From contig NW_021835690.1 in the NCBI RefSeq assembly GCF_006345805.1, forward strand, positions 1-64,000: a DNA stretch of 64,000 bases, given 5' to 3'. The stretch is from Octopus sinensis (lineage: Eukaryota). This document shows, piece after piece, positions 6,771-49,244 of this stretch (within the stretch, counting starts at the first letter, position 1; every line of letters begins with the position of its first letter). Position numbers and translations under genes: made by a program. A model generated the notes under the pieces. The model was not told where the DNA came from, did not search any database, and worked only from the letters and a program-made list of their open reading frames with translations.

Positions 6771-7426
6771 GTTTCTTTATTAGCCACACAGGGCTGCACA
6801 CAGATAGAACAAATTACAAGGTAGAGCTTTTCTTTTGGGGGTAAAAAAAGGAGAGTGGTGGTTTTCGATCAAAAGGGATCGTAAAAGGAAAGAAAAAGGA
6901 CAAAAAAAAGGGGAGGGGTTAAAAAAAAGGGGGGGAGAGAAAAAAAATGAATAATAGGGATCGTTATCACAGAAATGTCAATATGAAGTGTAAAGGGGAG
7001 GACAGGTGAGGTTTACCCGTGGAAAGAAAAGCCTACGGAAAAGACCACGGTAACCTCGGTCAATGAAGTCACATGTTATATTTCTTTTTTTTTTTTGCAA
7101 ATAAGCACTCTCTGTATTAATTTTTATGGTTCATAGAATCATAGTCAAGTGGCTTCGTCATTCATACGTGCCATCCTTGCTACATTCACCCATCTTTTTT
7201 TAAAACATTCACTAGACAAAACTTGCCTCTCTACTCTCACTTTCCTCTTCAAGTGATACTTGAAGAAGTTGATGAGAGATTGACCAGAGAGAAAAGTGTT
7301 TGTCTCTAATCCTTTCAGGCGCGTCCACCAGATACATTCTTTCGCCATAGCCACAAGTATGATAAAAATAGCTCTTCCTTCCCGTTTGAAGGAAGGAGGC
7401 GTGACGATATTAACGATAGACTCGGC
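6771..7426 (-). mobile_element. 5'-truncated Tx1/L1-clade LINE (ORF2 C-terminus plus 3' UTR) inserted in (GATA)n
   Basis: The unique part of ORF 7145-7687(-) reads ..ILVAMAKECIWWTRLKG..FFKYHLKRKVRVERQ..KRW, an AKxxIWxxR-type ORF2 tail. The 3' end is GCAGCCCTGTGTGGCTAATAAAGAAAC, with (GATA)n on both sides. Confidence 0.75.
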
Positions 7427-8244
7427 TAGATAGATAGATAGATAGATAGATAGATAGATAGATAGATAGATAGATAGATAGATAGATAGATAGATAGATA
7501 GATAGATGATAGATAGATAGATAGATAGATAGATAGATAGATAGATAGATAGATGATAGATAGATAGATAGATAGATAGATAGATAGATAGATAGATAGA
7601 TAGATAGATAGATAGATAGATGAATAAAATAAAGTAAAGATTAACAGAGTCAAAAGAAAGAGTAAGTACGGTTAGGCAGCTTTTCAAATGTTTCGATACA
7701 TATAGATCTACGTATACTCTTACTCTTTACTCTTTTACTTGTTTCAGTCATGTGACTGCGGCCATGCTGGAGCACCGCCTTTAACATACCTTTAACGTAT
7801 ATATGCAGGATTTAAATTTAAATTCCAATTTAATTCGAATTAAATCAGGTAACGATTTACCTGTATAATACGATCTATACGTATCTCCTCGGGCGATATT
7901 TAATCACTGTTTACGCAAGTAAATCTTAATTTCAATGCTCTTCATCTATGGCTCCTTTGAAACTAACAAACGCTAACGGTTTCAGTCCGCTCTCTATGAG
8001 TGTGTTATTACACGTTCGACATGAGCGACAATGTGCACGGTGTCTGCTTATTTAGTTTCACGTGGTATTCTGCACAGGCCAAATTGTATTATTACGGAAA
8101 ATGCACACATCCATTAGCTCATACTTATACGATCGCTTACACACCAACATACCAGCTGTTGTATTCATGGTTCCTTAGAATTTTCTGCTGCTGGATTTCG
8201 GCTCCATTCCATTGCAGCTATACAACAAGTTGGGGTTCCCCATG

Positions 8245-8500
8245 TGTCTGTATGTGTGTGTGTGTCTGTGTGTCTGTGCGTCTGTGTCTGTGTATCTGTG
8301 TGTGTTTGTCTGTGTGTCTGTGTGTCTGTGTGTGTCTGTGTGTGTCCGTCTGTGTGTCTGTGTGTCTCTGTGTGTCTCTGTGTGTATGTGTCTGTGTGTG
8401 TCTGTGTCTGTGTGTGTGTGTGTGTGTGTGTGTGTGTGTGTGTGTGTGTGTGTGTGTGTGTGTGGTGTGTGTGTGTGTGTGTGTGTGTGTGTGTGTGTTT
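8245..8500. repeat. (GT)n/(GTCT)n microsatellite
   Basis: Directly visible. Confidence 0.95.
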
Positions 8501-9773
8501 ATGTGAGTGTGTATGTGTATAGTAATTCCCATAACTAGTAGCCATACTTACAAGATATTCTCTTACTCAACAACATAGAATAATCAGGCTGCTTGTGAGC
8601 TATATTGCAAATATAGATTAGAAATATTTTTCATAATATTTTAGAAAGGAAATTCTGTTAGCGAATTAAGCAAATCTCTTGCTCTTCAATAATAATAGAC
8701 CACGCGGGCTAAATGACCAAAATAGCATTACATCATTAAATGCTGATAAACTGAAGGAAAACAACAACAAAATAACCAAACTGTATCAACACAGAATACT
8801 TGAAGAGTAAATTAATAACCCACTCGATACATTATGCAACGGATTTATCCCAGAGGGGGTTACATAGCTTCTCTGTATGAAAATTAACGAGAATACATCC
8901 GGGAAGATAATTAGATGCAATATAAACAATAAACAAACTTTGCTAGAAATACTGGAATGCTTCGAGCAAATGTTATCTGCTTTAAATAATAAATTGAAAA
9001 GGTTGAACATTTAGGGAACACTTCCCTCAAGACCTTATCTATATAAATATTTTTTAAATATTTTCTATGACTTTACGAGGAAAGAACTGCAAATAAAACA
9101 ATATAAAACAATATAAAACAATATAAAACATTCATTTTTGATAAAAAGAAATGCATTCGTTATTTCTTGTGGCAATTTACTTACAGCGTCCAAATCTTGC
9201 TGAGGCAAAGCGTCACAATTTCGCTGTCGATGAAATAAGATGCCAGCCATGTATTAGATATATATAATCGACTAAAACCCAATCACCAAAATTTCTCCCA
9301 TGCGCCAAGATCTATGGAACAGTTAATTGATTGCTTATTGACAAGATAGTATTAATGGTATTAGATGATAAGAATTTGATAACAGAATTCTTATCAATTT
9401 TATGTTAAATTTCAATAAATTCAAATTAAATTTTTTTAAATATATCTAAAGAATACTTTCAACCAAAGCAATATATTATAGCCTACCAAATAAACAATCA
9501 ACAACACTCGCATTGCTATTACTACTATTCACCAATGTTTATAATCCATTCACAGTATCAAGGTATGATGTAATGAATATGTAACATAAGGTACAATTAG
9601 GAACTGGGCCAAATTTTAGCCATTTCTCCGCAGACTGATAGATAGATAGATAGATAGATAGATAGATAGATAGATAGATAGATAGATAGATAGATAGATA
9701 GATAGATAGATAGATAGATAGACAGACAGATAGATAGACAGATAGAGAGACAGATAGATAGACAGATAGATAA

Positions 9774-10078
9774 GTTTCTTTATTGGCCACACAGGGCTGC
9801 ACACAGATGGGACAAGTTACAAGGTAGAGCTTTTCTTTTGGGGGATGAAAAAACAAAAAACAAAAGAAACAAAAAAAAGGAGTGGCGTAGGTTTTCGATC
9901 AAGAGGGGTCGTAAAAGGGAAGAAAAGAACAAAAAAAATAATAAATAAAATTAAATTAAAAAAATAAAAAATAAAAATAAAAAAAAGAAGAAAAGGAAAA
10001 GGAACAAAAGAAAAGAGAAATGAAAAAGAAGAAAAAAGGGGAAGATAAAAAAAACGATCAATAGGGATCGTGTATCAC
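9774..10078 (-). mobile_element. Second 3'-UTR-only copy of the (GATA)n-associated Tx1-type LINE
   Basis: Matches 6771-6972 (TTTCTTTATT.GCCACACAGGGCTGCACACAGAT..ACAAGGTAGAGC..TTTTCGATCAA..ATAGGGATCG..TATCACAG); GATA repeats on both sides. Confidence 0.8.
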
Positions 10079-46965: not shown

Positions 46966-46985
46966 TATATATATATATATATATA

Positions 46986-47487
46986 TAACAATAATTATTT
47001 AATATTAATAATAATATTTAATAATAACGAAATACATGTCGTTATTCTACCAAATATATACGTTTTTATTATTATTTTGCAATTTACTTAATCATCGGTA
47101 TATTATTGTTATTTTAATTTCATTATATGTAATTTCTATTATATGTAATTTTCTAGATGGTGTAATTTAATTGTTCATTTTGAATTGATAAAAGGTGTTT
47201 TTTCCTAATTTATATATATATATATATATATATATATATAATATATATATAATATATATATATATAACAATAATATTTAATATTAATAACAATATTTAAT
47301 AATAACGAAATACATGTCGTTATTCTACCAAATATATACGTTTTTATTATTATTTTGCAATTTACTTAATCATCGGTATATTATTGTTATTTTAATTCAT
47401 TATATGTAATTCTATTATATGTAATTTTCTAGATGGTGTAATTTAATTGTTCATTTTGAATTGATAAAAGGTGTTTTTTCCTAATTT
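46986..47487 (+). repeat. Two near-identical ~224 bp units separated by (TA)n
   Basis: 46986-47211 matches 47265-47487; each contains GAAA-tacatg-TC, a possible hammerhead 3' half. Confidence 0.85.
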
Positions 47488-48467
47488 ATATATATATATA
47501 TATATTATATATATATATATATAGATATATATATATATATATTTACATGTGAAGTAAAAGCAACTCTAGCGTAATAAATATTATTAAGTACATATACCAA
47601 TGTAAATGCTTTGAGTATTTTTGCAGTGACTGCAATGGCGTAGCGAAGTATATAAACTCTCATGTCACCGCTGTTAAAAAAAAATTCAGTTATTGACAGG
47701 CGAGATAACCCACTGCCAATACCAGCTCATGAATTGTAAATTTTCATATTTAAATTTTCATATGTAAATTTTCATATGTCAATTTTCGTATGTAAATTTT
47801 CTCTTACGTATGCAATTTCCGGCGATACCAGCTCATGATTTTACAAGCCATGAGCATATTAGTCGTGGACTGCCCAGGTGATTCGCCTTCAACACACAGC
47901 CACGCCTTCCTTCAGTATGTCACTTAGTTGATGGCATAAAAGATAGACAAGGATATTAGATGCATCCCAACTTCCACTTTGCATATTCACTTAAATTAGG
48001 TTTTAGCGCATTAAAATATGTAATATACGTTTAGCTTCTTATATAAGACCAGTTTTTGATTTTTTACTTGTTATTGAGCGTGGGAATACTACATATTATA
48101 TGCCATCAAATAGGATGCCCTTCTCGACAAAGGTATCCGCTTAGACCTGGTTATCATTTATTGAGTCATCGTCCCTTCCGCTGACAACTTCATTCGCATG
48201 AAGATTATCTTCATGATTTTCACCATCATTGTCATCATTGCTATAGTAATTTTTTTCTTATTATCGTTATCTTCGTTATCATCATTTTTGTCAGCAACCT
48301 CAACATTGTTATCACCACTATTACTCACCATCACCATCTTTATCGCTGTTACCATCATCATTATCATCAAAGTAATAATAGCAACAACGACAACAACAGC
48401 AAGAACAACAACAACAACAATAATAATAATACTAATGATGATGATGATGATGATGATAATAATAATA

Positions 48468-49244
48468 TGCCCTGATGCAGTACCAGGCAGTGGCTCTCAT
48501 GGCTTGTGATCTTAACTGATTGGAAGTGTTATCATGTACATTGTTTTGTCTTGGTATAAAAGATGGGCTACAGCAAATATTCTGCTCAATACCACAGATT
48601 TGCTTGTCAGTTGTTTGACCTTAGCCAGTTGAGCATGTAACTTGGTGGCTGACGATATGTGCATCTCTGACCACGAGCAGAAGTAATGGAGGAGCATCAT
48701 AGCCATGAGTCGAGGGGAATTCTTTGGGGTTTTAATAATTCACGTTTGGAGACATGGGTGTTTCGTTCAACATCCTTAAACAACCCTTATTAAGGAACAT
48801 CTTGAGCGGGATAGGTTACTCGAGCTTGGAGAAATGTTAGCACGCCAGGCGAGATGCGTAGCCGTATTTCGTCTGCCGTTACGTTCTGAGTTCAAATTCC
48901 GCCGAGGTTGACTTTGCCTGTCATCCTTTCGGGGTCGATTAAATAAGTACCAGTTACGCATTGGGGTCGATATAATTGACTTAATCCGTTTGTCTGTCCT
49001 TGTTTGTACTCTCTGTGTTTAGCCCCTTGTGGGTAGTAAAGAAATAGGTTACTCGACCTGAAGAAAATTCTAACTGGGCCCCACCTGCAAGTTCATGCGC
49101 TGTTAATCTTGATACGTGATAACCATGTGCACATAAGGTTGTGATGCATGTACCCTTATCAGACGGGTAGTCATGATGGGTATACTGGGCTTCATATATT
49201 TTACCCCAGTGTCACTTTGATGGCATGCACTGTTCTCTCACTCA
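48468..49244. mobile_element. Unclassified ~540 bp interspersed element between (TAA)n tracts, split by a SINE B
   Basis: Higher-GC non-coding block bounded by ATAATAATA on both sides; single copy in the window, so the class is inferred. Confidence 0.45.
48824..49043 (+). mobile_element. SINE family B with 13 bp TSD
   Basis: ATAGGTTACTCGA at 48811-48823 and 49044-49056. Confidence 0.9.

Follow-up and report, generated by a model that had tools for sequence, protein, structure and literature searches.

The window analysed here, i.e., the first 64,000 nucleotides (64 kb) of contig NW_021835690.1 of Octopus sinensis, has a G + C content of 35%, is rich in microsatellites and harbours a number of retroposons that end in similar 3' tails. 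Among these are fragments of long interspersed nuclear elements (LINEs) of the L1/Tx1 type, two elements coding only for a homologue of the first LINE open reading frame (ORF1), here called element 1 (E1) and element 2 (E2), and several copies of a short interspersed nuclear element (SINE) family, SINE B, with two types of tail (Table 1). Both E1 and E2 are nested in one split copy of another family, SINE A; this had been overlooked in an earlier note on the same DNA, as had an old LINE fragment further downstream. The 3' ends quoted in that note are all present, namely those of the LINEs at 9799-9778 and 6796-6775 (minus strand), of SINE B type 1 at 27145, 49018, 33359 and 23739, of E1 at 18846, of E2 at 21389 and of SINE B type 2 at 13774, and every one of them lacks poly(A), as had been stated. 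The genome searched comprises 2.72 Gb, with about 30 large contigs.

The 3' tail and its hairpin

The earlier note had called for a comparison of the terminal 60 nt and for a test of covariation in the stem, and both support a common tail. With 15 families, each represented by one real copy, the last 60 nt are more similar than dinucleotide shuffles (median z 3.7, with z > 3 in 61 of 105 pairs), although the tail ends were placed by target junctions or by eye and terminal similarity may be somewhat inflated. For the preceding 60 nt the median z is -0.2, and the seven of 105 pairs with z > 3 all consist of close kin or share a common SINE body. SINE A stands outside this matrix and was compared by alignment only; as a control, its own tail matches a non-Tx1 LINE, whereas the SINE B tails do not.

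With respect to the hairpin, a stem of 4 bp with a loop of 5 nt is paired in 91.4% of the cells of an alignment of 32 out of 45 tails (near-duplicates and those whose loop has 4 or 6 nt being excluded), in contrast to 74.8% after shuffling. There are 15 compensatory double changes, spread over three of the four pairs, versus 3.0 in the shuffled controls; since the rows are kindred and each alignment window was trimmed to the region of the stem, this covariation is to be read as a pattern and not as a p-value. Slid registers of the stem are paired in 16-54% of cells, none coming close to the true register, RNAalifold returned the same helix unaided, and 28 of the 45 single tails beat their shuffles at p <= 0.05.

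Taken as sequence evidence, these comparisons support the view that a radiation of L1/Tx1-type LINEs has this tail as its common 3' end, conserved in structure, and that SINE B type 1 and the ORF1-only elements carry it as well. The proposal that one 3' motif links the LINE fragments, the gag-only elements and both types of SINE B thus stands for the LINEs, for E1 and E2 and for type 1, but the link to type 2 is weak (z 0-2.7 for a majority-type copy).

LINE groups, ORF1-only elements and the SINE A site

Five groups of L1/Tx1-type LINEs bear the tail, and they differ in their targets, which are TATC repeats, ATT/ATC repeats, one base in SINE A, and dispersed sites or other repeats. The LINE family of the window has 1,743 candidates genome-wide (the best 40 of 1,743 at 97-100%), and TATC repeats directly follow the tail in 19 of 19 located tails. 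A query with a related end of the second open reading frame (ORF2) gave 26,320 candidates and two further groups, whose ends lie in repeats of ATT or ATC, a fourth group, TxA, was recovered via its junction pattern, and a fifth, TxR, was reached from the old fragment in the window. One copy of TxA (L137) is full-length, with 5.5 kb, both ORFs and a target site duplication (TSD) of 16 bp.

ORF2 with an APE-type endonuclease, a reverse transcriptase and a C-terminal zinc motif indicates that these elements belong to the L1 group (L1/Tx1): Pfam domains Exo_endo_phos, RVT_1 and zf-RVT were found in the intact copies scanned from two groups, and in the one group compared with the PDB the best match is human L1 ORF2p (E 6e-51, versus 2e-22 for R2). 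In a tree with unnamed outgroups only, from which one row was dropped as too short, all LINE groups form one clade with TxA as sister to TxR. An ORF1 with a CCHC zinc knuckle is a feature of the Tx1 clade, and zf-CCHC scores above the cut-off in ORF1 of TxA and just under it in E1 and E2; the preference for target sequences together with TSDs, likewise a trait of this clade, is also present. Searches of protein databases returned no named Tx1 relative, and the label Tx1-type as used here is therefore a matter of architecture and targeting and not of a reference tree.

Copies of TxR (L357-L386, L312, L320-L327) often have a common 3' flank, one sequence accounting for about 10 of 25 in addition to other shared flanks, which suggests further repeat-specific targets, including the ORF1 of related elements. 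A further passenger lineage consists of ORF1-only elements in tandem (L343, L346, L347), which are about 1.9 kb long and have tails of the TxR type.

E1 and E2 represent genome-wide families with defined 5' ends. Their reading frame is homologous to LINE ORF1 (28-42% identity to the ORF1 of the partner), ORF2 is missing, and both exist as multi-copy full-length families with TSDs, in line with ORF1-only non-autonomous LINEs. HAL1 proper derives from the L1 clade and has a poly(A) tail; E1 and E2 have none, and their ORF1 is related to that of the local Tx1-type LINEs, so that they do not correspond to HAL1 proper. In the window the TSDs are exact by coordinates, with 15 bp for E1 and 17 bp for E2, the latter of which can print as 20 bp because three letters of the tail coincide. 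E1 and E2 are covered piecemeal by four sets of contigs presumed to be RNA, which provides nothing firm on expression. The 5' untranslated region (UTR) of E2 contains two direct repeats of about 300 bp (18945-19545), the copy number of which differs among family members.

When searched with element-only queries, the same 15-nt site in the head of SINE A follows 24 of 25 ends of E1 and 28 of 28 ends of E2 (29 loci each, with the end missing in four and one, respectively), and TxA1, queried without tail or target, lies at the same SINE A base in 30 of 30 cases, the query copy included. Genome-wide, 420 exact SINE A sites are filled as opposed to 52,602 empty ones, with 0 in the controls, and LINEs with ORF2 occupy nine of the first 30 of the 420 filled sites. 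Heavily 5'-truncated insertions of 70-340 bp (L107, L108, L119, L126, L130) are also located exactly at this site, which argues that the 3' end alone marks it. Because each insertion restores the site, tandem stacks arise there; one of them, consisting of ORF1-only elements and nested pieces of LINEs (L091, L101, L102; G000:C7:10428100-10457400), extends over about 25 kb from a single SINE A site. One array element that resembles a two-ORF1 element is in fact an E5 (see below) inserted in a TxA-like ORF1.

The heads of SINE A and SINE B show box-like motifs by eye when compared with the consensus of the A and B boxes, and neither ARAGORN nor Rfam gave a tRNA match. By eye the target lies between the two presumed boxes, so that an insertion would split the SINE promoter. 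SINE A is a host and not a passenger in this system, its tail matching a non-Tx1 LINE at the 3' end. A fragment of a non-Tx1 LINE with such an alignable 3' end (L089:2151-3745) is a candidate partner of SINE A.

A further ORF1-only family, E5, is the sister of E1 by ORF1 (support 95/99). Its tail follows that of E1 as far as the stem; the differences lie mostly in the final 28 nt, which resemble those of TxR and SINE B type 1, and none of 28 E5 ends lies at the SINE A site. E1 and E2, in turn, are far apart by ORF1 and yet have a TxA-type end and the site in common. The landing place is predicted by the tail variant and not by ORF1 ancestry; this, correlative in nature, is the main evidence for stringent recognition at the level of families. 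In an unrooted tree with some long branches, the ORF1-only elements fall into at least three deep lineages, none of which is nested in TxA. A pattern search for a LINE with an E5-type tail gave three matches, none of them a LINE.

Within the 3' UTR, many elements at the SINE A site carry a short segment antisense to the target. Of the ends at this site with 6-10 nt of reverse complement to the T variant of the target, 49 of 50 lie at T sites, and all six of those complementary to the A variant lie at A sites, the T and A classes representing 15 and 6 clusters, respectively; neither complement is present in another 33 ends, mostly of the E1 group. The segment lies at about position -45 in E2-like elements and at about -80 in TxA LINEs, and the complement is at most 5 nt long in 16 tails of other families. 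In R1Bm and SART1Bm the 3' RNA pairs with the bottom strand of the target (PMC7265360), whereas the present segment is the complement of the top strand or of RNA that reads through. On sequence grounds, we rate it as a probable accessory and non-essential aid.

SINE B tail types and their possible partners

SINE A and SINE B have a common central body and different tails. For type 1 there are 3,960 exact tail matches; the TSDs of its copies in the window, exact by coordinates, are 17, 11, 13 and 17 bp long (the last one being microsatellite), and 16 of 30 copies have TSDs of 14-18 bp. None of 150 type 1 ends is found at the SINE A site, and 42 of 150 are joined to the SINE's own body; among 19 non-SINE cases at this body site, judged by eye in 1.8 Mb of fetched loci, a small sample, no LINE was found.

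Over the last 45 nt, type 1 is identical to TxR at 40-41 positions, to E5 at 38, to the LINE family of the window at 33-34 and to TxA at 30-32, and over 60 nt its tail reaches z 5.7-7.6 against the TxA, TATC and ATC groups. Its CCC/GGG stem is also present in TxR LINEs. By its target and by its tail distance (33-34 of 45, versus 41 of 45 for TxR) the TATC LINE of the window was ruled out as the partner of type 1. In an age comparison, likewise proposed in the earlier note, type 1 (about 6% diverged) overlaps with the best TxR copies (89-95% alike); types 2 and 3 are diverged by about 16%. As a partner signature, the TSD length of type 1 (14-19 bp) fits, but its preference for GGT does not match TxR; since the TxR flanks do not start with GGT, the LINE moving type 1 is likely an unsampled sister.

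Type 2 is less clearly connected. Of the first 100 of 7,121 exact matches, some of which are tandem neighbours, 93 have a GGC/GCC stem, four a GCC/GGC stem, three an unpaired G/G and none a C/C, and the type 2 copy quoted in the earlier note therefore represents the minority variant. The TSDs of the three type 2 copies in the window are 8, 0 and 0 bp long, exact by coordinates, so that the claimed agreement between SINE B TSDs of 13-17 bp and those of the gag-only elements applies to type 1 (11-17 bp) and not to type 2. A third tail type with a GGC/GCC stem, ending before ATT repeats (e.g., L045:3063-3110), was absent from the earlier list, and near G000:C1:41262843-41263902 a type 2 tail recurs every 115 bp or so in satellite-like arrays of SINE B parts.

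We slightly favour the view that type 2 belongs to the same system via an older ATT/ATC-targeting LINE. That types 2 and 3 were instead moved by another LINE clade, their likeness to Tx1 tails being due to convergence or to one old exchange, is a serious possibility, albeit the less probable one, in favour of which are the weak similarity over 60 nt, the reversed stem, the small number of clear TSDs and the divergence of about 16%. However, the loop and its position are the same, the terminal 28 nt of type 2 agree with the ATC-targeting LINE and with E2 at 21 of 28 positions (23 of 28 in the minority variant), and ATT-like sequence follows the ends of both types. No LINE with a type 2 or third-type tail was found in the 1.9 Mb of fetched loci, which is a small sample; as far as it goes, this also speaks against a separate clade.

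Mechanism, alternative readings and known systems

The last few dozen letters of the elements vary by family and match the landing site, and the tail is thus likely to decide whose enzyme a passenger borrows. Taken together, the comparisons point with good probability to a tail-sharing L1/Tx1-type radiation, in which each passenger would borrow the enzyme and the landing site of the LINE sub-lineage with the same tail variant. The ORF2 protein would bind the hairpin and the terminal bases and tell variants apart (stringent recognition), and TxA would move E1 and E2. SINE B, with a body in common with SINE A, might have acquired its tail through exchange, a sister LINE with a preference for targets starting with GGT, beyond those sampled, would move type 1, and the antisense segment might pair with the target as an accessory, non-essential aid.

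A number of observations weigh against this tail-sharing radiation. The families are related, so that the covariation counts are not independent events, while the shuffle control ignores kinship and the alignment windows were chosen by the analyst; the hairpin comprises only 3-4 bp, and 17 of 45 tails are not significant, several folding otherwise or without the stem (some being decayed copies). E1 is devoid of the antisense segment and yet targets as strictly, the A class is possibly one old lineage, and the sample was partly ascertained by junction pattern. Type 1, the tail of which is nearest to the TxR and TxA groups, is a mosaic, with an upstream part identical to TxA1 over 24 nt and an end like that of TxR, and GGT comes next in 22 of 30 copies but not in the sampled TxR flanks. 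The search for a direct type 1 partner was negative, the exact-tail pattern giving 62 matches, of which 30 of 30 loci read are SINE B. Finally, the majority form of type 2 remains at z <= 2.7 against all non-SINE tails and has few TSDs.

According to another reading, the tail is a mere signal for 3'-end formation, AATAAA-like for cleavage and polyadenylation or a termination element, inherited by descent, with partner choice effected by co-assembly with ORF1 or by pairing of read-through RNA with the target. AATAAA indeed lies just past the stem in several tails, the target always follows the site-specific elements so that read-through RNA could pair, as has been proposed for R1Bm and SART1Bm (PMC7265360), and the antisense segment covaries with the target. 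We consider this reading unlikely, since SINE B, which has no ORF1, kept the hairpin with compensatory changes, AATAAA is missing from the SINE A-site group, the ORF1 lineage does not predict the target (E1 versus E5), and 5'-truncated as well as dispersed copies stop at the same base.

Least probable is the version of the earlier note, in which one permissive Tx1 machinery reads the common hairpin and serves all passengers, the differences at the ends being neutral: loop size, stem and position are common to all families and the type 1 flanks are mixed, a few resembling TATC or ATT targets, but the SINE A site holds 52 of 53 ends of E1 and E2 as opposed to 0 of 28 of E5 and 0 of 150 of type 1, which for E1, E2 and E5 largely refutes it. 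What holds of that proposal is that the passengers carry a Tx1-type LINE tail, whereas a single machinery, or the LINE of the window serving all of them, is at odds with the split in targets and tail variants; the LINE fragments of the window, with their TATC targets, match none of the passengers.

Going beyond the tail-sharing radiation itself, we tentatively suggest that the last 28 nt or so might act as a swappable address label by which any passenger would be allotted to the enzyme and the landing site of one LINE, and that the 7-10 nt antisense segment of the 3' UTR might pair with the target and have co-evolved when the host SINE changed a base, which would amount to a natural, partly RNA-guided SINE-homing system.

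Each piece of this system has a precedent (Tx1-Mar/SINEU, stringent L1 of maize, HAL1). In crocodilians, Tx1-Mar LINEs and SINEU have a common target inside a Mariner DNA transposon, with different LINE families for different passengers; SINEU end in poly(A), and the portions available of the report describe no LINE sharing their 3' end (Kojima 2015, PMC4494074). Here, too, Tx1 LINEs have a target in common with their passengers within another transposon, but it lies in the head of a SINE, ORF1-only elements are among the passengers, and the common tail shows covariation. Stringent pairs in the L1 clade are LINE1-1_ZM with ZmSINE2/3 of maize and L1-1_CR with SINEX-3 of Chlamydomonas (Ohshima 2012, PMC3472496; Ohshima 2013, PMC3747384), and three L1-group stringent SINEs are listed in the former, as far as its text is available. 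Similar to the present case, these pairs of L1-group LINEs and SINEs have their last 45 nt or so conserved and a hairpin with compensatory changes; they are, however, of plants and algae, the algal pair has poly(A), and the text available mentions no site-specific targeting, whereas the radiation described here is animal and of the Tx1 type, lacks poly(A), has a stem of 4 bp and shows tail variants in step with the targets.

HAL1, HeT-A and Ag-Sponge have been classified as ORF1-only non-autonomous LINEs in the part available of a review that also treats the exchange of SINE tails as known (Kojima 2018, PMC5786205). E1 and E2 likewise encode ORF1 only and keep the LINE 3' end; unlike these elements, they are tied to one SINE base, are stacked and represent old, tail-exchanging lineages. 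The mechanism proposed here is that of ZfL2-1 and ZfL2-2, elements of the L2 clade in which each ORF2 strictly recognises its cognate stem-loop (Hayashi 2014, PMC4176376, as available), as demonstrated there by assay and suggested here by genome patterns. Like the microsatellite-targeting Tx1 elements Kibi and Koshi in the accessible part of PMC4494074, the LINE fragments of the window and two sister groups target microsatellites, in this case TATC, ATT and ATC. For Octopus vulgaris, 13 recently active L1-Tx1 families have been reported (PMC13282606), in the accessible text of which Tx1 is mentioned once and the words 'target' and 'nested' do not occur. The literature covered, which lay outside Repbase and most subscription journals, yielded no paper that deals with the tails of octopus Tx1 elements, with the targeting of SINEs or with the present combination, and the repeat library of PMC13282606 may include these families.

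[quoted passage not shown] The radiation supplies many natural pairs of tail and target, among them sister elements with distinct landing places, the differences between which lie mostly in the final 28 nt. By small swaps two questions thereby become testable, namely by what means an ORF2 of the L1 group selects its RNA in the absence of poly(A), and whether pairing of RNA and target adds to endonuclease specificity. A SINE head present as more than 50,000 exact sites, moreover, serves as a safe harbour for another LINE and its parasites.

Table 1. Retroposons and associated sites in the 64-kb window of Octopus sinensis contig NW_021835690.1
Feature	Position	Strand	Remarks
Young L1/Tx1-type LINE 3' fragment, TATC-repeat-targeting	6770..7432	minus	ORF2 C-terminus frame 7148-7438, 3' UTR, hairpin tail
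3' UTR fragment of sister TATC-targeting LINE subfamily	9773..10078	minus	5' edge set by eye
SINE B type 2, minority GCC/GGC-stem variant	13586..13801	plus	Old subfamily
SINE A head severed from body	17353..17391	plus	17377-17391 is the upstream 15-bp TSD
E1, full-length ORF1-only retroposon	17392..18875	plus	Zinc-knuckle open frame at 17451-18689; hairpin at 18849-18861
SINE A target site regenerated between E1 and E2	18876..18892	plus	TSD copy
E2, ORF1-only retroposon	18893..21417	plus	Frame broken (19791-20270, 20349-21026); hairpin 21391-21403
7-nt segment in E2 tail	21376..21382	plus	Reverse complement of target site
Downstream TSD, body and tail of host SINE A	21418..21812	plus	Tail resembles a different, non-Tx1 LINE
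SINE B type 1	23712..23943	minus	17-bp TSD
SINE B type 1, then tandem partial units	26940..27790	plus	Units joined at own body site
Old broken ORF2 fragment of LINE group TxR	27689..28498	minus	TxR tail closest to SINE B type 1; end overlaps SINE array
SINE B type 1, hairpin deletion	33075..33295	plus	Inside microsatellite
SINE B type 1	33332..33562	minus	11-bp exact TSD
Old SINE B type 2 copy	39335..39528	plus	GGC/GCC stem
Old SINE B type 2 copy	46008..46226	plus	GGC/GCC stem
SINE B type 1, 5'-truncated	48821..49043	plus	13-bp TSD

Apart from these elements, the window contains a near-perfect inverted repeat of 116 bp at 11849-11964, with a weak miRNA-like match in Rfam below threshold, which is likely a MITE-like (miniature inverted-repeat transposable) element.

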